This document shows, in pieces, positions 28,001-38,392 of a DNA stretch of 64,000 nt; within the stretch, counting starts at the first letter, position 1, and each line of letters starts with the position of its first letter. The notes beneath the pieces were generated by a model that did not search any database, was not told the DNA's origin, and was given only the letters and a program-made list of their open reading frames with translations. The position numbers were made by a program, and so were the translations under genes. The stretch is from an uncultured delta proteobacterium (lineage in GTDB: Bacteria; Myxococcota; UBA727; VGSZ01): contig CAVZJB010000013.1 in assembly GCA_963775425.1 (NCBI GenBank), forward strand, positions 257,592 to 321,591, read 5' to 3'.

Positions 28001-28456
28001 GAGCGGGCTTTGCTTATACCCAGCGGGAGCCCGATGGGAACGGGCCGCGCCGCCTGGTCCGGCGGTGAGGCTCTTCCCCTTCGGGCGCCCAGGTTCCCTT
28101 CGCGCCGAGATTCGGCCCAAGCAATGCCGCGGCCGTGCCGGGGGCGGGCGCCCTCCGGCGAAGAACCTCACCGCCGGCCCGGTCGGCAGCGCTCCTTCCG
28201 CGAAACACCCACGGCCTCGTCGGAATCCCTCGCCTCAACCGACCGCGCACCCCTTGGCCGGCGACTCCGGCTCTCCTCGCGCCACGCGTACAAGGGTCAC
28301 TCCATGGAAACCCCAACCGGTCCACAGCGCGAGGCGCTGCGGGAGCCTCCGCCGCCGGCCTGCGGCGCGCGCTCCCGGACGTGACACGGTCACGACGACC
28401 GCATCCCCACGACGTCGAGCTTCAGCAAGCCAATCGCCGCGAGATCGCCGGCGGCC

Positions 28457-28509
28457 TGCTACAATCCGTGCGACTTGCCGACATGATGTCGGCTAGAATT
28501 ACGTTGGGC
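28457..28509 (+). promoter_or_regulatory. putative cassette promoter (extended -10 TGcTACAAT) and attI-like site ending in core GTTGGGC
   Basis: TGCTACAAT 28457-28465; palindrome GCCGACATGATGTCGGC 28477-28493; GTTGGGCGG at 28503 is complementary to CCGCCCAAC at 30198-30206. Confidence 0.6.
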
Positions 28510-28543
28510 GGCCCCTCGGCGTCGTCACTCGCTTGGAGAAGAC

Positions 28544-29587
28544 ATGACAGCGAAGCGGATTGCGATGTTCAACCACAAGGGTGGCGTGAGCAAGACCACG
28601 ACGACGTTCCATCTCGCGTGGATGTTGGCGTCGAAAGGCAAGCGAGTGATCATGGTTGACGCTGATCCGCAGTGTAATCTCTCCGGGGTGGTCTTGAACT
28701 ATCGGGGGGTGGACGAGTTCGAAAGGTTCTACGAGCAGGACACGAAGAACAACCTCCGCGCGGGCCTCGCTCCTGCGTTCGAGAGCCGTCCGGAGCCGCT
28801 CCAGGCCGTTGAGTGCGTTGAGGTACCCGCGCGCCAAGGGCTTTTCCTCTTGCCTGGTCACATCCGCCTGTCGGAGTACGAAGTGACATTGGGCATCGCC
28901 CAAGAACTTTCGGGTTCCATTCAGACGCTGCAGAACCTCCCCGGCGCAATCTCGTCCGTTCTCGACCTTACTGCTGCGAAGTACAAAGCCGATTTCGTTA
29001 TCGTAGACATGAATCCGAGCTTGTCGTCGATCAATCAGAACATATTGATGACGTCTGACAACTTCATTATACCGGCCTCTCCTGACTTCTTCTCGGTTCT
29101 GGCGATCGACTCTCTCTCCTCTGTCATCCCTCGATGGTGCGCCTGGGCAAAGAAAGCTCAGACAATCGACGCCCTTCGCTCGGCGACCTACCCCTTCCCC
29201 GTCGTGTTGCCGAAGTTCCTCGGTACCGTGATCCAAAAATATCGCCCGCGTGGCGGAAAGGCGTCGGTCGACTTCCAGCGATGGATCGACGACATCAACC
29301 GATCAGTGAAGACCAAACTCCTTCCGGTGCTCCAAGCCGGTGGCCTCCTCGTAGACGACGCACGCTACACAGCGGCAAAGATGGGCCCCGAGAGAAACCT
29401 GTCCCTTATTCCTGACTTCAACACGCTCATTGCTAAGTCTCAAAAGACGTCTACTCCTGTTTTTGCCCTGACGAAAAAGCAACTGGAGCGCAGCGGTCAG
29501 ATTTTGAAGAAGACACTTGAGAATCGAGAGAAGTTCAAAAAACTGTTCCAGGATTTGGCGGAAAAAGTCATCACGCTAACCGCCTAG
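28544..29587 (+). CDS. ParA/Soj-family ATPase (long, defense-associated type)
   Basis: NHKGGVSKTT deviant Walker A, DADPQCNL, VDMNPS; lower GC. Confidence 0.92.
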   Translation: MTAKRIAMFNHKGGVSKTTTTFHLAWMLASKGKRVIMVDADPQCNLSGVVLNYRGVDEFERFYEQDTKNNLRAGLAPAFESRPEPLQAVECVEVPARQGLFLLPGHIRLSEYEVTLGIAQELSGSIQTLQNLPGAISSVLDLTAAKYKADFVIVDMNPSLSSINQNILMTSDNFIIPASPDFFSVLAIDSLSSVIPRWCAWAKKAQTIDALRSATYPFPVVLPKFLGTVIQKYRPRGGKASVDFQRWIDDINRSVKTKLLPVLQAGGLLVDDARYTAAKMGPERNLSLIPDFNTLIAKSQKTSTPVFALTKKQLERSGQILKKTLENREKFKKLFQDLAEKVITLTA

Positions 29588-29590
29588 CAC

Positions 29591-30187
29591 ATGCAGCACG
29601 CGCTCGATCAGTTCAACGAGAACATCGGACGCTGCGAGGCGCTCGGAGCGCTCCATGTCTCCCTGAAGGGTCAACTCACTGCGGCCGTGGATATCTCCGA
29701 CCTCTTGCGGGCCCAAATCGTCCTCGCTGTCAGTGCCTTTGACTTCTATGTGCATGAAGTGACCCGCCTCGGGATGCTCGAGACACAGGCGGGGAGGCGG
29801 CTGCCGGCTACGGAGTCGTTCAACAAGTTCCCGGTCTCTATGGCCTCGGTGAACGTGGCCCTCACTGGCGCTCCCGCTTGGTTCGACGCCGAGATTCGCC
29901 ACCGTCATGGCTTCCTCACCTTCCAGATGCCCGACAAGGTTGCCGACGCCATCCGTCTCATCTCTGACGTCAAGCTGTGGGCAGCAGTCGCGCCCTCTTT
30001 GGGCACGACCGACGTCGCGGCGAAGACACAGCTCAAGCTCATCGTCGAACGCCGGAACAGAATCGCACATGAAGCGGATCAGGACCCGACAACGCCGGGT
30101 CAGCGTTGGCCGATTGATGAACTCCTCGTCGCGAACGCCGTGGATTTCCTCAAGCGAACCGTCGCTGCAATTCACGCCGTGCTATGA
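29591..30187 (+). CDS. HEPN-domain protein (RiboL-PSP/MAE_18760-like)
   Basis: DLLRAQIVLAVSAFDFYVHE, RRNRIAH RxxxxH motif; 3 nt after the ParA stop. Confidence 0.85.
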   Translation: MQHALDQFNENIGRCEALGALHVSLKGQLTAAVDISDLLRAQIVLAVSAFDFYVHEVTRLGMLETQAGRRLPATESFNKFPVSMASVNVALTGAPAWFDAEIRHRHGFLTFQMPDKVADAIRLISDVKLWAAVAPSLGTTDVAAKTQLKLIVERRNRIAHEADQDPTTPGQRWPIDELLVANAVDFLKRTVAAIHAVL

Positions 30188-30199
30188 GCGTTCTGCCCC

Positions 30200-30360
30200 G
30201 CCCAACAACGCACGGCCGCAGAGGTCGCGCTTCGCGCGACACAGCCGCGGTCGCCGCGTGCTCGCTCCTCCGTCGCTGCGCGCGCAGGGTTGTGCTCCGT
30301 CGACAAGCCGCGCCAGAATGAACGTGATCGTGCGGCTGTCGGCCGTGCGCAACGTTGCAC
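30200..30360 (+). other. attC-like recombination site 1
   Basis: GCCCAAC..CGCACGGCCG...CGGCCGTGCG..GTTGCAC inverted structure starting 13 nt after the HEPN stop. Confidence 0.75.
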
Positions 30361-30482
30361 ATGCCCGCTACGCGGGAAAAGGTCGTCGTGACGACGACGA
30401 AGTGGTCAACTCGCTCGCGTCTTTCGATCGACCGTGTTTAGCGACACGCATGTGGCACGGCGCGCGCATCGCGTCGACGGCA

Positions 30483-31670
30483 ATGCCGGCAACGGTGCAG
30501 GACATCTTCCGAAGCGGATTCTCTGCGTTCCAGGGCGATCGCGAGCTCCCTTCACGAATCACCAGGGCTGCGCACGCAATCATCGCGTGCAGGACAGCGA
30601 TGCTCGGTGGTCACGTCGAGCGCTGCCCCGATGGTCACTTCGCAAAGATCCACTACAACTCGTGCCGGCACCGGTCCTGCCCCGGCTGCAGGTTCATCAG
30701 GGTGGAGCAGTGGCTCGAGGTTCAGCGAGCGCGGTTCCTGGACTGCGGTCACCACCACGTCGTGTTCACGATCCCCGAGGAGCTCAACACGCTTTGGAGG
30801 CACAACCGTCGCGAGATGACCGACGTCCTCTTCGCGGCCGCGAGCGAGACCCTGCTGGAGCTCCTCGGGGACCCGAAGCACCTCGGCGCGAAGCCGGGCA
30901 TCATCGCCGCGCTGCACACGTGGGGACAGGCGCTGCAGTTGCATCCGCACCTCCACTGCGTGGTGACCGCGGGTGGCCTCGACGCGAACGGGGACTGGCG
31001 CGATGCGAAGAAACGCATCCTTCTCCCCGGGCGTGTCGCGCGTGACCTGTTTCAGGGGCGCTTTCTCGGCAAGCTCTCCCGGCTGCTCCGCGCACGACGG
31101 CTGCTCCTGCCGGAGGACCTGGACGAGGACGGCGCGGCTCTGCTCATCGACTCGCTTTGGCGGAAGCGGTGGCATGTGCACGTGATGGAGCGGTACAGCA
31201 ACGTCGAGGGCGTCTTGAACTACCTCGGGCGGTACGTGCGTGGCGGCCCGATCGGCAACGGGCGAATCGTTGCGTTCGACGGAGCCACCGTCACGTTCCG
31301 CTACGCGGACAACCGCGACAAGGAGCCCGGCAGCGTGAAGGGCAAGGCGAAGGTGATGACCCTCAGCGTCGACGAGTTCCTGCGCCGGTTCCTTGAGCAC
31401 GTGCCGCCGAGCGGGTTGCGCGTTGTCCGCAGCTACGGTGTCTACGCGAACGCCGCCAAGCGGAGCTCCCTTTCGCGGGCGCGCCGTGTGATGGGCCAGG
31501 AGCCGGCGCGAGAGCCGCGAAGAGCTTCCATCGACGCCGTCGTTGCCAAGCTTCGCTGCCCGGATCCGCGGTGCTGCCCCGCGTGTGGCAAGCGCCTCGT
31601 CCGCGTCGGAGAGCTCCCTCGCGACGACCGAGGGCGACGACGACGACTGGTGACCCGATGCGCAGCATGA
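30483..31670 (+). CDS. IS91-family (Y2 HUH) transposase with zinc-binding N-terminus
   Basis: CRT..GGH..C..YNSCRHRSCPGC, HVVFTIP, LHTWG..HPHLH, YLGRY, C-terminal CPACG. Confidence 0.93.
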   Translation: MPATVQDIFRSGFSAFQGDRELPSRITRAAHAIIACRTAMLGGHVERCPDGHFAKIHYNSCRHRSCPGCRFIRVEQWLEVQRARFLDCGHHHVVFTIPEELNTLWRHNRREMTDVLFAAASETLLELLGDPKHLGAKPGIIAALHTWGQALQLHPHLHCVVTAGGLDANGDWRDAKKRILLPGRVARDLFQGRFLGKLSRLLRARRLLLPEDLDEDGAALLIDSLWRKRWHVHVMERYSNVEGVLNYLGRYVRGGPIGNGRIVAFDGATVTFRYADNRDKEPGSVKGKAKVMTLSVDEFLRRFLEHVPPSGLRVVRSYGVYANAAKRSSLSRARRVMGQEPAREPRRASIDAVVAKLRCPDPRCCPACGKRLVRVGELPRDDRGRRRRLVTRCAA

Positions 31671-31858
31671 GCTGGCCGGGTTGTCGCGTCGGCGACAGAC
31701 CTGCGCGCCGAGACCAGGCGACAGAATGCTCCGAGCCGCGCGACAATCTCCTGCCGCTGCCGGCGATCGAGCAGCGGCACCCACCGGTACGACGGACGGC
31801 GCTCAGGACCGGCGCGGTTCCGAGGGCGACCCGCACCAACGCCCACGTACGCGGGCAC

Positions 31859-31994
31859 GTGCAACAGCGCACTGGCGCAAAGCTCCCCGCCGTGGGCCGC
31901 TGACGCGCCCACAGCGGGGAGTCGTCCGCGCGACACAGCACGTGCAATAATGGGCGTCCTGGCGCGCAGACGCCGCCAGTGCTCAACGTTGGCA
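31859..31994 (+). other. attC-like recombination site 2
   Basis: GTGCAAC.agc.GCACTGGCG...CGCCAGTGC.tcaac.GTTGGCA; shares CGCGCGACACAGC with site 1. Confidence 0.75.
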
Positions 31995-32006
31995 GCGGGA
32001 ACACAG

Positions 32007-33275
32007 ATGACCAAGAACTCCCCCCTTGGTGCCCGGCAGCGGTCGTTCTTCGACCTGCTTCGCGACCGTTCCGGCAAGAGCGTGACGGACGAGGAAATCC
32101 TCGAGGCGACTGGTTGGAAGCGGTCAACTTGGAAGGTCTACTCAGGCAACGGAGTTCTCGATCCGTTCCTCGCCCCGGTATCGGCCGGGACGTACAAAGT
32201 GGTCTGCCCGCCAGACATCGATGAATGGGAGTTTCATCGGCGACTTTCGCAGAGCCCGCAGCGGCGACACATTGGTGCCCCATGCAAGCAGGCGTTGGCT
32301 CGCGAGCTTGTGAAGAAGTCTCGCGACAACATGATTTTGGCGCTCGAACTTTACAATCGCCCCAGTCTTGAGAATCGCCTGGACGCGTTCTCCATGCTCT
32401 TCTGTACAGCCTGGGAACAGTTGCTCAAGGCCGAGCTGATCGAACAAGATGGAGAGACCGCGATCTTCCGTCCGCAGAAGCCGGGCAGGCGCCGTGAGTC
32501 GATCAGCCTAAGTGACGCTGTCGCAAAGTGTTTCGATCAGAACGACCTAGTGCGGAAGAACCTCGAAACAATCGAAGAGCTGCGTCATGGAGCTACTCAT
32601 CTCTTGATGGCCCCGCTCCAGGCGCCACTGTCCCGGTTGTTTCAGGCGGGCGTCATCAACTTCTCAACACGTTTCAAAGAGGTCGCGGCTGAACCGCTCT
32701 TGCCACGTAGTGCAGTGGGACTCCTATCGCTCGTCGGCGACGACTCGTTGCCCGATGCCACGGACCTGAAGAAGCTCTACGGCGAAATCACTGCGGCGGA
32801 CATTGCGGAGCTCGCTGCGGAGTTGGGCACAGAGATCAGGTCCGTGAACGACCCGCGCTTCGCCGTGACGGTGGAGTACCGACTGGCCCTTACAAAGAAG
32901 GAGAAAGACGGAGACATCATGCTGGCGACTGCGGCGGACGGCGCGAACACGGGCCTCGTTCTCGTGAAGCCGGTCAGCGTCGACAAGACCCACCCATTCA
33001 GAGCTGCTGAAGTCCTGACTGAAGTCACGATGCGAACGTCGTTGCCGTTTAATCGACACGATCTGCAGGCTGTCCTTCACAAGGAGGGCTGGAAGAACAG
33101 CGACAACGAGTTCCACCACCTCCAACTGAACCCTGATACCTCGAAGTACTCCGAGAAGGCAGTTGCCTACATTTGCAGATGCATCACGCAACGCCCGGAG
33201 TACCTGCAGAACGCGCGGGAGTCGTTGTCACACCACAACCGATCGCTTCGGAGCAAGTCGAAGACGGCGAGCTGA
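32007..33275 (+). CDS. DUF3644/EC042_2821-like (HEPN-fold) protein with N-terminal wHTH-like region
   Basis: LVKKSRDNMILALELYNRP..AFSMLFCTAWEQLLKA signature, RHGATH motif; ATG 13 nt after the core site. Confidence 0.8.
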   Translation: MTKNSPLGARQRSFFDLLRDRSGKSVTDEEILEATGWKRSTWKVYSGNGVLDPFLAPVSAGTYKVVCPPDIDEWEFHRRLSQSPQRRHIGAPCKQALARELVKKSRDNMILALELYNRPSLENRLDAFSMLFCTAWEQLLKAELIEQDGETAIFRPQKPGRRRESISLSDAVAKCFDQNDLVRKNLETIEELRHGATHLLMAPLQAPLSRLFQAGVINFSTRFKEVAAEPLLPRSAVGLLSLVGDDSLPDATDLKKLYGEITAADIAELAAELGTEIRSVNDPRFAVTVEYRLALTKKEKDGDIMLATAADGANTGLVLVKPVSVDKTHPFRAAEVLTEVTMRTSLPFNRHDLQAVLHKEGWKNSDNEFHHLQLNPDTSKYSEKAVAYICRCITQRPEYLQNARESLSHHNRSLRSKSKTAS

Positions 33276-33554
33276 GTCGCGCAGCCAACAATGATGGGAT
33301 GAGGAGGCCGGTGCTTCGGACGTGCGGCGATCCATGATCGCTCAAGCACAAGGAGGATGGGATGACGTCGACGACAATGACAATCGGAATCGACCTTGGT
33401 GATCGGAAGAGCCACGCCTGCGTGCTCGATGAGCATGGAGAGGTCTTCTGGCGCTCGGAGTTTCCCTCGACGCGAGAAGGAACGTGTCCTTCCGGCAAGC
33501 GTGCGTGACCGGCCCGCCGCCGCGAGGTAGCGCCTCCTCCCTCGGAGGTGGCCC

Positions 33555-33935
33555 ATGGGTGAGACGACGTCGAGGAGAATCGAGCGGCTGCGTGGGGAGA
33601 TCGAGGCGTGGCGCCGCTCGCGCTACGAGCGCGCGCCCCTGCCAGCGCGGTTGTGGAGCGAAGCCGTCGCGGTCGCCCAGGAGCTCGGCGTCAACCGCGC
33701 CCGCGTTGCGCTCGGGCTGAGCTACCGCGGGCTTCAGGCGCATGTCGACCGCGCGGGGACCGCGCCGACCTTCGTCGAGCTCTCGGGCGCCGACGTCCTC
33801 GCTGCGGGCGCGAGCGCGGCGTGCGGCACGTCGATCGAGATCAGCGGCCGCGACGTCCACGTTGTCGTTCGACTCGGCGGCGGCGCAACGGTCGACATCG
33901 CCTCCCTCGTCGACGTCGTGCGAGGACGCGCGTGA
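33555..33935 (+). CDS. tnpA: IS66 TnpA-like accessory protein
   Basis: LPARLWSEAV HTH-like region, FVEL motif, first ORF in the element. Confidence 0.75.
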   Translation: MGETTSRRIERLRGEIEAWRRSRYERAPLPARLWSEAVAVAQELGVNRARVALGLSYRGLQAHVDRAGTAPTFVELSGADVLAAGASAACGTSIEISGRDVHVVVRLGGGATVDIASLVDVVRGRA

Positions 33936-34288
33936 TCCAGGTGACGCCGCAGACGCGCATCCTCGTCGCGGTGGAGCCGCCCGACTTCCGCTGCGGGATC
34001 GACGGGCTCGCCAAGGTGTGCCGCACTCAGCTCGCGGCCGACCCGTTCACCGGCGCCGTCTTCGTGTTCAAGAACCGCCGCTCGACGTCGGTCAAGCTCC
34101 TGGCCTACGACGGCCAGGGGTTCTGGCTCTGCCAGAAGCGGCTCTCCTCGGGCCGGTTCCGCTTCTGGCCGTCGTCGACGAGCGGAGCGTCAACGACACT
34201 CAAGGCGCATGAGCTTCACGTGCTCCTCTTCGGCGGCGACCCGACCGGTACGCGCGCCGCTCCAGCGTGGCGGCCGGTAAGCGCGTAG
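33932..34288 (+). CDS. tnpB: IS66 TnpB accessory protein
   Basis: DFRCGIDGL, VFVFKNRR..KLLAYDGQGFWLCQKRLSSGRF. Confidence 0.93.
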   Translation: MIQVTPQTRILVAVEPPDFRCGIDGLAKVCRTQLAADPFTGAVFVFKNRRSTSVKLLAYDGQGFWLCQKRLSSGRFRFWPSSTSGASTTLKAHELHVLLFGGDPTGTRAAPAWRPVSA

Positions 34289-34368
34289 GCGCTGCCACAA
34301 CTCGAGCCTGAGCGCGATCGATCGTGGAGACGATCCCCTCGCGGATCGTGATGTGATCCAACAGCGCC

Positions 34369-34599
34369 ATGGTGAAACGGCTGAAGCGGCGGGCCCCCAA
34401 GCCCAGGCTCATCGGCAAGGAAGAGGCGGACGCGCTCCTCGCGCGCATGCAGGGCGTGATGAGCGACGAGGACATCGCTTTCGTGCGTTCGGCGCTCGAA
34501 GCGAACCAGTCGATTGGCGATGTGCTCACGTCGTCGATGTCCGAGGCTGACGGCCTCGAACGCATCAAGGCGGCGCTCGCGCGGGTGAGGCGCTCGTGA
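34369..34599 (+). CDS. small ORF resembling the TnpC N-terminus
   Basis: GTGA overlap with tnpC; similarity to the TnpC N-terminal residues seen by eye. Confidence 0.55.
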   Translation: MVKRLKRRAPKPRLIGKEEADALLARMQGVMSDEDIAFVRSALEANQSIGDVLTSSMSEADGLERIKAALARVRRS

Positions 34600-36266
34600 C
34601 CACCCACGGGCCCCAGATCGTCGATGTCGACGCCGAGTTCGCCGCCGCCGTCGTCGGGCGCGCGCAGGTGCTGATGCCGTCCGGCGATGCAGCGTTCATC
34701 GACGCGCTCGTTCAGTCTCACGCACTGGTGATGACCCTGCTTCGCCATGACCGCACGACGATCGCGCGTCTCAAGCGACTCTTCGGCATCGCGAACAGCG
34801 AGAAGACCGACAGTGTCTGTCCACCGTCCAGCCCTGCGAGCGAATCCAGCGACACGACCACGACGACGAGCAACGATGACGAGGTCTCCACCGGCAACGA
34901 CGGCGGTGATCGTGACGACGGCGATGGCGGAGCGAAGCCGAAGGGGCACGGTCGCCTTCCGGCGCTGGCATTCCCCGACGCGCGCCACGTCGAAGTCCGG
35001 CACGACAAGCTGCACGCCGGCGCCACATGTCCGTGCTGCACGCGCGGCAGGCTTTTCGAGATGAGCGAGCCATCGCGGATCGTGCGCATCTTCGGGCAAG
35101 CACCGCTCGCCGCCGTCGAGTGGGACTGCGAGCGCCTCCGCTGCGGTGGCTGCGGCGAGGTGTTCACGGCGAAGGCGCCCGAGGAAGCGCAGGGGCCGAA
35201 GTACGACGACAGCGCCGCGGCGATGATGGCTCTCTTGCGCTACGGCGCCGGTATGCCGCTCAATCGCTTGGACCATCTGCAGAGGAACATGCAGACACCG
35301 GTGCCCGCGTCGACGCAGTGGGAAGTCGCTCGCGATCGCGCCGAGGATCTGCAGCCAGTGTATGAGGAGCTCGCGAAGCGCGCCGCCGCCGGCCGCGTGC
35401 TTCACAACGACGACACCCACGCGCGTATCCTCGCGCTCATGGGTGATCGTCGCGAGCACCTCATCGAGAAGGGCGAGCTCCCCGACCCCAAGCGCACAGG
35501 CCTGTTCACCACCGGCGTCGTCGCCGAGACCGAGGACGGGCGCATCGCGCTGTTTTTCACCGGGCGCAAGCACGCTGGCGAGAACCTCACGGACGTCCTC
35601 GCCGCGCGCGACGGCAAGCTCGACCCGCCCGTGCAGATGTGCGACGGCCTCGACCGCAACCTGCCCAAGGGGCACACTGTCGTCCTCGCCAACTGCCTGT
35701 GCCACGGACGCCGCAACTTCGTCGACGAGGTGAACAACTTCCCCGACGAGTGTCGCCACGTCCTCGAGGAACTCCGCATCGTCTTCCGCGCCGAGGCGAC
35801 GTGCCGTAGGAAGTGCCTGACGCCCGAACAGCGGCTCGTCCTTCACCAACAGAAGAGCGCGCCCGTGATGGAGCGCCTGCGCGCCTGGATGAACGAGATG
35901 CTCGCCGACAAGCGCGTGGAGCCGAACTCCGGGCTCGGCAAGGCCTTCGCGTATCTCCTCGCGCGATGGGGGCCGTTGACCCTGTTCCTCCACGTCGCTG
36001 GCGCGCCGCTCGAGAACAACATCTGCGAGCGCGCGCTGAAGATGGCGATCCGCCACCGCAACAACTCGCTCTTCTACAGGAGCGAACGCGGCGCCAATGT
36101 GGGCGACCTGTACATGACGCTCATCCATACGGCAGAGCTCCACGGCGTGAACGCGTTCGAGTACCTCACGACGCTGCTCCGCCATGCGCGCGACCTCGCC
36201 GATGATCCGGGGGCCTGGTTGCCGTGGACGTTCCGCGCGACGCTCGAGCACCGGCGCGCCGCGTAG
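34596..36266 (+). CDS. tnpC: IS66 DDE transposase TnpC
   Basis: KGHGR, CPCC..CGGC zinc motif, HNDDT, CLCHGRRNF, NNICERALK..RNNSLF. Confidence 0.95.
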   Translation: MTTHGPQIVDVDAEFAAAVVGRAQVLMPSGDAAFIDALVQSHALVMTLLRHDRTTIARLKRLFGIANSEKTDSVCPPSSPASESSDTTTTTSNDDEVSTGNDGGDRDDGDGGAKPKGHGRLPALAFPDARHVEVRHDKLHAGATCPCCTRGRLFEMSEPSRIVRIFGQAPLAAVEWDCERLRCGGCGEVFTAKAPEEAQGPKYDDSAAAMMALLRYGAGMPLNRLDHLQRNMQTPVPASTQWEVARDRAEDLQPVYEELAKRAAAGRVLHNDDTHARILALMGDRREHLIEKGELPDPKRTGLFTTGVVAETEDGRIALFFTGRKHAGENLTDVLAARDGKLDPPVQMCDGLDRNLPKGHTVVLANCLCHGRRNFVDEVNNFPDECRHVLEELRIVFRAEATCRRKCLTPEQRLVLHQQKSAPVMERLRAWMNEMLADKRVEPNSGLGKAFAYLLARWGPLTLFLHVAGAPLENNICERALKMAIRHRNNSLFYRSERGANVGDLYMTLIHTAELHGVNAFEYLTTLLRHARDLADDPGAWLPWTFRATLEHRRAA

Positions 36267-37250
36267 CCGCCCCTACAGCACCGCGGCCGTGGCCGTCACG
36301 CACGCTTGCCGGAAGCACACGAAGGAACGACCAACTTTCTCCGTGGCTTCACCGCAGCTCGCGTGGTGATGGAGGTCGGGACGCACTCACGCTGGGCAAG
36401 CGTCATCGCGAAGGAGCTCGGCCACGAGGTCATCGTCGCGAACCCGACCCACGTGCGCATGATCTATGCGAGCACGACGAAGTCGGACCAGTTCGACGCT
36501 GAGGCGCTCGCCCGCTTGGGCAGAGTGGACGTCGCTCTGCTCCATCCTCTCCGCCACCGAAGCCGGAACGCCCAGGCCGCGCTTGCGATCGTGAAGTCTC
36601 GCGACGTGATGGTCCGCGCGCGGACCGACCTCGTGAACCACGTGCGCATCGTGGTGAAAGCGGATGGCGCGCGCCTGAGCAAGTGCGACGCGAACCAGTT
36701 CGCGAAGAAGGTCCGTGGCGAGGTGCCGGATGCGCTTTCTCTTGCGTTGTCCCCGGTCCTCGACGCCATCGAAGAGCTGACGAGGAAGATCCGCGCTCTC
36801 GAGTCCCTCATCGAGCGGGTGTCGAAGGTGCACTTCCCCGAGACGGCCCGGCTGCTCCAGGTGAAGGGCGTGGGCCCCGTGACTGCGCTCGCGTTCGTGC
36901 TCACGCTGGAGGACGTGAAGCGCTTCGAGGACCCTAGGGACATCGGTGCATACCTCGGGCTCGTTCCTCGGCGGCGCCAGTCGGGCGACCTCGACCCGAA
37001 CCTGCGCATCTCGAAGGCCGGCGACGGCTACCTCCGGCGCCTCCTGGTGAACTGCGCGCACTACATTACGGGCCCGCTTGGCCCCGACTGCGACTTGCGC
37101 CGGTTCGGGCATCGCCTCGCGCCTCCTGGCTCGAAGGTGCGGAACAAGCGCGCCGTCGTCGCCGTCGCGCGCAAGCTCGCGGTGCTGCTGGTGCAGTTGT
37201 GGCAAACGGGATCGGCGTACGAGCCGCTGCGCCAGGCCGCGGCTGCGTGA

Positions 37251-37420
37251 ACCCTCGACGGAGAAAGGCAGCTGGCAGAAGGAGGATGTTCTTGGCGACC
37301 TGAACCGTTTCAACGCTTCAAGCCTATGACGCTTCGTCCGTGTGACTGCGCGCCGTGCATGAGCCTCGAGCTCGGAACAATGATGGCAGCACGCGAACGA
37401 TTCGGACCACTCTGGGGTCT
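37251..37420 (+). ncRNA. candidate IS110/IS1111 bridge (seek) RNA in the downstream noncoding end
   Basis: Noncoding region after the transposase contains AACAATGATGG (37376-37386), identical to 33287-33297 at the left junction; boundaries uncertain. Confidence 0.45.
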
Positions 37421-37518
37421 GAGTAGGCGAAACGGTGGTGCCAGCGAACAACGCGTCGCCGGAGCGACCAGGCAAGGTCGCAGCAACAAGCGGGGTGGAT
37501 CCCGCCAAGGCAAGGAGT

Positions 37519-37573
37519 AGCCAACCGCCTTGTATCGAGTCTTGCAGCGTCGACGGCAACGGCGGCGTTGAAG
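37519..37573 (+). other. attC-like site 3 (short, 55 bp)
   Basis: AGCCAAC.CGCC.TTG..TCGA...TCGA..CAA.GGCG.gc.GTTGAAG. Confidence 0.5.
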
Positions 37574-37738
37574 CGTGTGCGGCGCCATCGCACCGGGACG
37601 TCTGTCGACGCGAGCATCGATGAGGGTGTCGTCGTCTCCCGCACGGCCCCGTCCCGCCTGCGGCTCGAGCGAGGATTCGCAGTCGACCAGCGCGGGCGAA
37701 GACACGTAGAATCCCATAGGCTGTGCCTCAGCGCTTTC

Positions 37739-37822
37739 GTTCAACGGGGTTTCTTTCCTGCGCGGCTCGCACCGACGTCGTCGGCGCATTCGGCGCGCCG
37801 GGAAGACGCCCTTTCGTTGGCT
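37739..37822 (+). other. attC-like site 4
   Basis: GTTCAAC.GGGGTTTCTTTCC...GGAAGACGCCC.tttc.GTTGGCT with internal hairpin. Confidence 0.6.
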
Positions 37823-37873
37823 GGCAGGAAGAAGAGAGCAGCAGCGCGACGCGCAGCGAGGAGAGTCTTCGCG

Positions 37874-38332
37874 ATGATCATCCGCAAACCACAGGTCGCC
37901 GTGGCCACATCCGACGGACGGGCGCCGGAACACGGTCCATTCGAGTCGCTGCGCTACTCAGACGCCGGCGGCGTCTCCCAGTTCGGCGTCTACGTCGAGA
38001 CGCTGCCACCAGCTTCGCGTTCGTCGACGCGTCACTGGCATGAGAAGGAGGACGAGTTTCTCTACCTCATTTCTGGAGAGGCGACCGTCATCGAGAACGA
38101 CGGACCCCATACGCTCTATGCCGGCGACGCAGCTTGCTGGCCTGCGGGAGTCGCAAATGCTCACACGGTCGAGAACCGCTCCGACCTTTCATGTACTTAT
38201 TTGATCATGGGCACGCGCCTCACGCACGATGTCTGCCACTACCCCGACGCGCAGCGGACGTTGTTCACCGAGGGAGAGACCTGGAGACTCGTCGCGGACG
38301 ACGGGACGGTGCTGAAGGCCGGCCGAACCTGA
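37874..38332 (+). CDS. cupin domain protein
   Basis: GVYVETLPP..SSTRHWHEKEDEFLYLISG, AGVANAH, CHYPD; followed by CGCCAAC at 38375. Confidence 0.88.
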   Translation: MIIRKPQVAVATSDGRAPEHGPFESLRYSDAGGVSQFGVYVETLPPASRSSTRHWHEKEDEFLYLISGEATVIENDGPHTLYAGDAACWPAGVANAHTVENRSDLSCTYLIMGTRLTHDVCHYPDAQRTLFTEGETWRLVADDGTVLKAGRT

Positions 38333-38392
38333 TGGCGCGACGCGACGATCGGCGACGCCGGGCCCGCTCGTGTTCGCCAACAAGTCGAATCG

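Follow-up and report, generated by a model that had tools for sequence, protein, structure and literature searches.

Asymmetric hairpin sites of candidate integron-like cassette arrays in Myxococcota, and a neighbouring tyrosine recombinase

In classical integrons a cassette consists of a gene and its hairpin site, attC, and exchange takes place at G|TT of the site's core (inverse core RYYYAAC, core GTTRRRY). Classical attC sites have a spacer of 5–6 nucleotides (nt) on each arm and two to three extrahelical bases on the R''-L'' arm (Nivina, 2016; Bouvier, 2009). Integron integrases (IntI) are defined and searched for by an extra domain, an insertion of ~35 residues (with the I2 helix) near patch III of the tyrosine recombinase fold, and attC sites by their extrahelical bases, and the two features are thought to cooperate in strand choice and in blocking the second strand exchange. 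Here we describe hairpin sites that follow genes in a stretch of 64,000 nt (hereafter the window), which forms the end of contig 13 (CAVZJB010000013.1, positions 257,592 to 321,591 of the forward strand) in the genome of an uncultured delta proteobacterium assigned to the Myxococcota (GCA_963775425.1; G000, 8.26 Mb, 72% G+C). The hairpins are probably attC-type cassette recombination sites, belonging to an integron-like gene-capture system with a distinct recombinase clade.

In the proposal of Escudero et al. (2016), the decisive gain in the descent from a Xer-like ancestor was an I2-like domain; Ghaly et al. (2021) screened for the complete IntI domain. Recombinases near attC sites that do not have this domain are not IntI according to Cury et al. 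(2016), whereas in the present arrays an insertion-less recombinase is the consistent neighbour. The insertion is incompletely conserved in an 'integron-like' subgroup of simple tyrosine recombinases (Smyshlyaev et al., 2021), whose insertion-less members are not linked to cassette arrays or to site geometry in the available description. Literature searches, within the passages of text available, brought up no account that links cassette arrays to an insertion-less recombinase.

The arrays described here share with classical integrons cassettes made of a gene and a hairpin, AAC/GTT boxes, apparent exchange at G|TT and composite sites, as well as, in relatives of G000, an attI-like head beside a divergent tyrosine recombinase gene. 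They also share invasion by IS110-family elements and group II introns, and the branched terminal structure of the hairpins is like that of large chromosomal attC sites. They differ in the recombinase, which has no IntI insertion, scores below the cut-off of the integron integrase profile TIGR02249, is extended at both termini and makes up a clade of its own. The sites differ in a shorter R''-L'' arm, an L stem without extrahelical bases, and spacers of 1–4 nt on the left and 3–5 nt on the right against the classical 5–6 nt on each.

Geometry and spread of the hairpin sites

Site 1 (30200..30360, + strand) opens with the R'' box GCCCAAC (30200-30206) and the spacer AAC (30207-09), continues with a stem of GCACGGCCG (30210-18) paired to CGGCCGTGC (30340-48), and closes with the spacer GCAAC (30349-53) and the R' box GTTGCAC (30354-60). 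Site 2 (31859..31994, +) is built in the same way from GTGCAAC (31859-65), the spacer AGC, a stem of GCACTGGCG (31869-77) and CGCCAGTGC (31974-82), the spacer TCAAC (31983-87) and GTTGGCA (31988-94). A preliminary description of the window had given both sites 3 nt on the left of a perfect 9-bp (base pair) stem and 5 nt on the right before GTT, with no classical extrahelical base in the left L box, and these features hold exactly at the coordinates above: both stems are uninterrupted and free of unpaired bases. It had also pointed out a shared 13-mer, CGCGCGACACAGC, and a common ending, GTGC(G/T)CAACGTTG, and both are present. The 13-mer occurs exactly at 30233 and 31927, two matches against 0.07 expected (two or more in 1 of 100 shuffles), at positions which the alignment shows to be non-homologous in the two sites.

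Site 4 (37739..37822, +; GTTCAAC ... GTTGGCT) is diverged, with an imperfect stem and arms of 12 nt on the left and 15 nt on the right when counted to the ninth pair. The longer right spacer that had been claimed for sites 3 and 4 is therefore found in site 4, but site 3 has no unambiguous location, its two candidates being AGCCAAC at 33283, cut by an IS110-family element, and a left half-site at 37443-37462 that precedes an intron remnant. Sites 1, 2 and 4 have in common the form NNNNAAC ... GTTNNNN, a short R box, an asymmetric spacer, a stem of 9–11 bp (perfect in sites 1 and 2) and a three-way junction. Site 2 folds with a z of -5.8, and none of 200 shuffles is equally stable. A scan for stems with concordant boxes gave chains only at 28–41 kb of the window, and none on either strand of the other 51 kb. 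A 57-nt site at 37519-37575 was considered and ruled out, as this segment lies within domain 1 of the group II intron remnant (RF02005) and folds with a z of +0.98.

A covariance model, R1, was built from three sites. It scores five known members at 35–146 bits (site 1 at 118, site 2 at 146; site 4 is not scored), with the next best match in 101 kb at 20.8 bits. The source genome G000 holds a second array on contig 13 (locus L009) and a decayed third on contig 8 (L010). R1 matches were obtained in 10 of 61 related genomes, including six of the ten sister genomes of the family, so that the further arrays which a new model had been expected to find do exist; one relative, G006, has 19 matches in arrays spaced at ~1 kb. 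Over 23 aligned sites, seven of the nine L-stem pairs change on both sides and 98.9% of cells are paired, a figure reached by none of 500 shuffles. Five sites from relatives, folded as bottom strands, agree in structure, four with z of -4.9 to -6.6 and one with z of -2.4. The shared fold has an AAC/GTT box, an asymmetric internal loop and a 9–11 bp stem; at the three-way junction beyond it, the 3' arm of the bottom strand has five unpaired bases, CTTTG or CTCTG.

For comparison with attC, both arms were aligned and the bases counted to the ninth pair. The left (R''-L'') arm is shorter by 1–3 nt in all 23 sites (by 2 in 16, by 1 in five and by 3 in two). Seven class-1 attC sites, drawn from three plasmids, give values of 0, +1 or +2, and in a 15-site Planctomycetota array beside a true IntI the value is 0 in 12 and +1 in one, two sites being mis-registered; in the controls combined, the left arm is equal or longer in 20 of 22 sites, the other two being those mis-registered. 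The Planctomycetota array (L120 136-9173 (-)), from a metagenome-assembled genome (MAG), is a textbook chromosomal integron with sites of ~90 nt, which have spacers of ~5 nt on each arm (the right ~1 nt longer) and two extrahelical bases. A stand-in canonical model, R2, built from six of its sites, found the 15 sites of its own array and no class-1 attC, and its silence on the present sites is hence uninformative.

The right spacer is longer by 1–3 nt in 21 of 21 measurable sites of the sister genomes, with left/right lengths of 2/4 nt (nine sites), 4/5 (seven), 1/3 (three), 3/5 (one) and 2/5 (one); the 5–6 nt per arm of classical attC is not seen among them. Their L stem is perfect over 9–11 bp in 18 of the 21, over 8 bp in one and over 3–4 bp in two. 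Extrahelical bases of attC are sought on the R''-L'' arm within the L box, at position 16 and then at 20, 23 or 24. All seven class-1 controls and the Planctomycetota sites have such gaps in the L box; in the present family the sole unpaired bases on this arm are the 5 nt at the junction, past the stem. The right arm, at 7 + 14 nt, is as long as in classical attC, and the left arm is short of 2–3 nt, including the extrahelical base of position 16. On our own reading, the T residues of the junction may lie near classical position 23. The suggestion of a distinct site family, made in the preliminary description, is thus borne out by an asymmetry that recurs throughout the sister-genome sites and separates them from both sets of controls.

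The sites could nevertheless be ordinary attC sites of a classical integron integrase that has been lost or was left unassembled, with the neighbouring recombinase incidental. Such an origin would account for the AAC/GTT boxes, the G after AAC on the bottom strand, the class-1-like 5-nt right spacer, the branched terminus and the cassette logic. The left-arm geometry, however, is unlike that of every well-registered control attC measured, and the distribution of integrase genes also bears on the question, as set out below.

Box concordance and cassette exchange

Along an array, each site opens with six bases whose reverse complement directly follows the G of the preceding right-hand GTT. In the window, GTTGGGC at 28503 pairs with the GCCCAAC of site 1 (TTGGGC is the reverse complement of GCCCAA), and the GTTGCAC of site 1 pairs with the GTGCAAC of site 2; between the GTTGGCA of site 2 and the AGCCAAC at 33283, five of six positions agree with the expected TGCCAA. 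Over the arrays of G000 and two sisters, concordance at six of six positions was found in 12 of 14 adjacent pairs of model hits as against 17 of 366 non-adjacent pairs. The two discordant adjacent pairs lie 2.8 and 3.8 kb apart and may have an unrecognised site between their members. Array heads are concordant with the first site in all five cases (the window, L009, G006, G004 and G009). Box concordance of this kind is a signature of integron cassettes. AAC and GTT are near-invariant in the 23 sites, with the RYYY and RRRY parts of the attC core merely loosely kept (e.g. GTGCAAC).

One cassette, which carries an IS91-family transposase gene, occurs in two contexts, after site 1 and after the attI-like site on contig 11 of G000. 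The two copies are 99.3% identical over 741 nt, and their identity starts exactly at GTT, which places exchange at the right end of the site, as in integrons. A cassette would accordingly be read as a gene with its own hairpin site 3' of it, and exchange would fall on the conserved G|TT with which a site, or an attI-like head, ends on the right. Such exchange would leave each cassette opening with six bases that pair with the left box of the site it carries. We infer that the substrate is the folded bottom strand, and the manner of strand choice is presumed in the same way.

That hairpins follow genes and have GC-rich stems is also what repeated extragenic palindromes or terminators would show, and one pair flanks the IS91-family transposase gene, as the ends of an IS91-like element might. 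The concordance between adjacent pairs and the recovery of one cassette at an attI-like site, with its junction at GTT, make it highly improbable that the hairpins are any of these rather than recombination sites. The sites flank unrelated genes in many arrays, which is not what is expected of IS91-family element ends, and the arrays of relatives contain no IS91-like gene. The preliminary description had proposed that the sites co-occur with pairs of IS91-like transposase and integrase, a proposal which found no support: the transposase is a passenger in one cassette, present twice in G000 and absent from the 16 array loci retrieved.

The neighbouring tyrosine recombinase

In relatives, arrays run from a gene for a tyrosine recombinase. 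On contig 20 of G006, three sites run away from a divergent recombinase gene, with an attI-like junction between them and a concordant first cassette, and the gene is likewise divergent beside the first cassette in G004 and G009. Contig 20 probably runs on into contig 11 or contig 3 of G006. In G008 and on contig 11 of G000, an attI-like hairpin and GTT come after the recombinase gene. The arrangement of an integron platform, with a recombinase beside attI and a divergent array, is found in G006, G004, G009 and G000 contig 11, and the window has the head and no gene. The contig 11 gene (L042 6927-8440 (-)) is the only one of the family in G000. The first cassette beside it, that of the IS91 transposase, breaks off after ~740 nt.

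The recombinase retains the catalytic R, K, H, R, H and Y. With TIGR02249 it reaches 194.7 and 182.3 bits, short of the cut-off of 265, matching in two stretches that skip profile positions 179-234. IntI is the best family match (194.7 bits, below cut-off), with XerA (190) and XerD (170) close behind. In an alignment, the IntI insertion is absent from five of five members of the recombinase family and present in two true IntI proteins. At the N terminus the family has a conserved extension, and at the C terminus a folded domain of ~85 residues, predicted as four strands and three helices (predicted local distance difference test score, pLDDT, 93–97 in the full model). A fold search with this domain reached at best a Z of 5.6 (SpoVG, root-mean-square deviation 3.1 over 67 residues), which is below a meaningful level and gives no assignment, and a protein atlas search with the C-terminal part gave no usable match. 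The closest solved fold to the whole protein is that of Vibrio cholerae IntI4 (2a3v, E 6e-17), and the best sequence match among solved structures is XerA (4a8e, 194 bits). An SPLD motif after the catalytic Tyr was dropped as a diagnostic, being common to many Xer-like proteins.

In a quick tree, 15 family recombinases form their own clade (support 99), apart from nine IntI (support 100). Of 401 genomes sampled across the phylum, 14 carry the recombinase, always in single copy, and eight of the 11 of the family are among them; homologues of 47–82% identity occur in MAGs labelled Deltaproteobacteria, Myxococcota and Planctomycetota. A scan of genome contigs with generic patterns from the recombinase alignment returned 79 loci, all Xer-like or IntI and none of the family; these served as outgroups in the tree and supplied the canonical array L120. 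Three loci were returned from metagenome contigs with the C-terminal domain, all of which end upstream of the gene and are uninformative on arrays.

No IntI above the TIGR02249 cut-off was found in any of the 11 genomes of the family (G000 and ten sisters), six of which have sites. Together with an insertion-less clade beside arrays or heads, this agrees by context with the proposal in the preliminary description that a non-IntI or divergent recombinase recognises the sites. It also tells against a classical integrase as their origin. Arrays without an integrase are common (Cury et al., 2016) and a true IntI is present elsewhere in the phylum, in two genomes, but the insertion-less recombinase stands at the array head in four genomes, beside a common attI-like hairpin, and with the left-arm geometry described above an origin as ordinary attC sites appears unlikely.

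The host's XerC/XerD, or another unlinked recombinase, might instead act on the sites, the adjacent recombinase having some other role. In the single-strand integration of CTX phage, XerCD has no I2-like domain and uses a hairpin substrate without extrahelical bases in its paired boxes (Escudero et al., 2016), as is seen in the L boxes here, and G000 encodes XerD (339 bits) and a XerC-like gene elsewhere. Unlike the XerCD/CTX system, however, the present arrays have a dedicated, array-linked recombinase with extra domains and hold many cassettes rather than one phage genome. The retention of this single-copy recombinase of its own clade at array heads, divergent and beside an attI-like site, makes action by Xer or another unlinked enzyme decidedly unlikely. 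The partner enzyme of the sites would most likely be the distinct, Xer/IntI-related clade of tyrosine recombinases, and we infer its action on them. The site may fit this enzyme through its shorter left arm, its uninterrupted 9–11 bp L stem and the five single-stranded bases of the junction.

Several points weigh against an integron-like system with its own recombinase. All of the evidence is in silico, and the recombinase is linked to the sites by position alone, an adjacency seen in four genomes of one family. Sites 1 and 4 fold no better than shuffles (z -1.67 and -1.63), the covariation was read from an alignment fitted to the model, and the arm-length measure was devised for this analysis, with the two of 15 Planctomycetota controls mis-registered under it. 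The tree leaves the deep branching order of the recombinase clade relative to IntI and Xer undecided. The G000 recombinase has a single frameshift between its catalytic and C-terminal domains, the latter being intact in the +1 frame. In five of five more distant genomes with the recombinase (G098, G064, G114, G071 and G013) no array was found within 6–13 kb upstream, and a search with R1 in G098, G064, G114, G071 and G359 gave single matches of 26–30 bits in G098, G114 and G071 only. Sites occur without the recombinase in G005 and G012, and the recombinase without site matches in G008 and G010, all four of them fragmented. Most relatives are indeed fragmented assemblies, in which recombinase contigs often end 200–700 nt from the start of the gene (G002, G007 and G008).

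The array in the window and its wider meaning

Across ~28–41 kb of the window the G+C content falls to 56–69%, and the genes there lie on the + strand, each with a hairpin site 3' of it. The array begins with an attI-like head (28430..28509, +), which consists of a hairpin of GCCGACAT and ATGTCGGC (28477-28493), TAGAAT, TAC and G|TTGGGC (28503-28509). An alignment shows its homology with the L009 head, and also with the segment that separates the recombinase gene from the first cassette in G009, G008 and G000 contig 11. No recombinase gene adjoins the head, and protein family searches found none in the window; a promoter scan of the head gave no match.

Directly upstream of the head lies a repeat resembling a miniature inverted-repeat transposable element (MITE; 28030..28385, strand not given), ~340 nt long with terminal inverted repeats, which stands outside the recombination system. 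It has 26 BLAST matches genome-wide, and an alignment of seven copies shows common ends and unrelated flanks. A copy stands upstream of both array heads of contig 13, the two being merely 73% identical. Readings of 28030-28385 as an attI, a structured RNA or an intI remnant were ruled out by its MITE-like character and its more than 20 copies; the segment had no Rfam match at an E-value threshold of 1 and no protein family match.

Cassette 1 (28504..30354, +), with boundaries set by box concordance, holds genes for a ParA-like AAA_31 ATPase (28544-29587) and a HEPN RiboL-PSP protein (29591-30187), then site 1; gene identities here and below are Pfam matches. Cassette 2 (30355..31988, +) holds the IS91-family transposase gene (30450-31670; Y2_Tnp, Zn_Tnp_IS91) and then site 2, and cassette 3 (31989..33289, +) a gene for a DUF3644 protein (32007-33275) and then the R''-like box AGCCAAC (33283-33289). 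The DUF3644 protein matches a candidate single-gene defence system, PDC-S19 (PADLOC, 215 bits).

Site 3 at this box is interrupted by an IS110-family element (33298..37392, +, ends approximate), of which no further copies were found. Its transposase gene is in two parts (33362-33509 and 36306-37250), split by a complete IS66-family element with inverted repeats at 33483-33516 and 36288-36321. An 11-nt sequence, AACAATGATGG, occurs at 33287, beginning within the site-3 box, and again at 37382, ~130 nt past the transposase stop. This repeat could have arisen by duplication of the target, or it could match the target in the manner of a guide. Elements of the IS110/IS1111 type that target attC sites are known.

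The left half-site that is the other candidate for site 3 (37443..37462, +; AGCGAAC, AAC, GCGTCGCCGG) has a like arrangement before the intron in L009. It is followed by the remnant of a group II intron (37463..37730, +), with an internal deletion and an undefined 3' end, which matches RF02005 at 37497-37616 with 43.7 bits, below the gathering score of 49; the homologous introns of L009 and L010 score 137 and 96 bits. The introns of the window (37443-37730), L009 (8255-7938 (-)) and L010 (6852-7075) start ~2 nt past the 10-nt left stem of the half-site, and appear to have entered the sites where the junction lies, reading in the direction of the cassette genes. At 37432-37449 of the window and ~1560-1540 (-) of locus L038, the right stem runs directly into the next left box (..GAAC) with no GTT, and such 'fused' sites may be an aberrant exchange product. 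The last cassette (37817..38381, +) carries a cupin gene (37874-38332) and then a degenerate box, CGCCAAC near 38375, at which there is no convincing hairpin (fold z +1.3). The second and third arrays have in common a small gene that runs against the array (L009 9210-9560; L010 5930-6300); it lies inside a cassette with a degenerate left box, and may be a toxin-antitoxin-like stabiliser.

The insertions of the IS110-family element, the IS66-family element and the group II intron, together with a head that has no recombinase gene, identify the window array as an integrase-less, decaying cassette array. With at least three sites, no recombinase gene, and insertion sequence and intron insertions, it resembles in structure the CALIN, a cluster of attC sites without an integron integrase (Cury et al., 2016), but unlike a CALIN it retains an attI-like head.

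The system would work like an integron, yet its recombinase has no IntI insertion and its sites do not have the extrahelical-base geometry, two of the features by which integrons are defined. A more tentative proposal, which we put forward as possible rather than probable, is that it represents a second integron lineage, either an independent invention or a stage predating the I2 helix. In such a lineage, a Xer-like integrase without the IntI insertion would capture cassettes using a new C-terminal domain, with a short R''-side spacer and the single-stranded junction bases in place of the L-box extrahelical bases. As its sites and its recombinase both stand outside the hallmarks of integrons, this may be an overlooked branch of the gene-capture machinery, and integron finders that filter on the IntI domain and a classical attC model might leave such systems uncounted. 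It would offer a new structure-specific recombination system for study and a direct handle on the evolution of single-strand cassette recombination from Xer-type enzymes. Candidate defence genes are among the cassette contents, in keeping with the view that chromosomal arrays store such systems. The census of gene-capture platforms would also be wider than current tools count.

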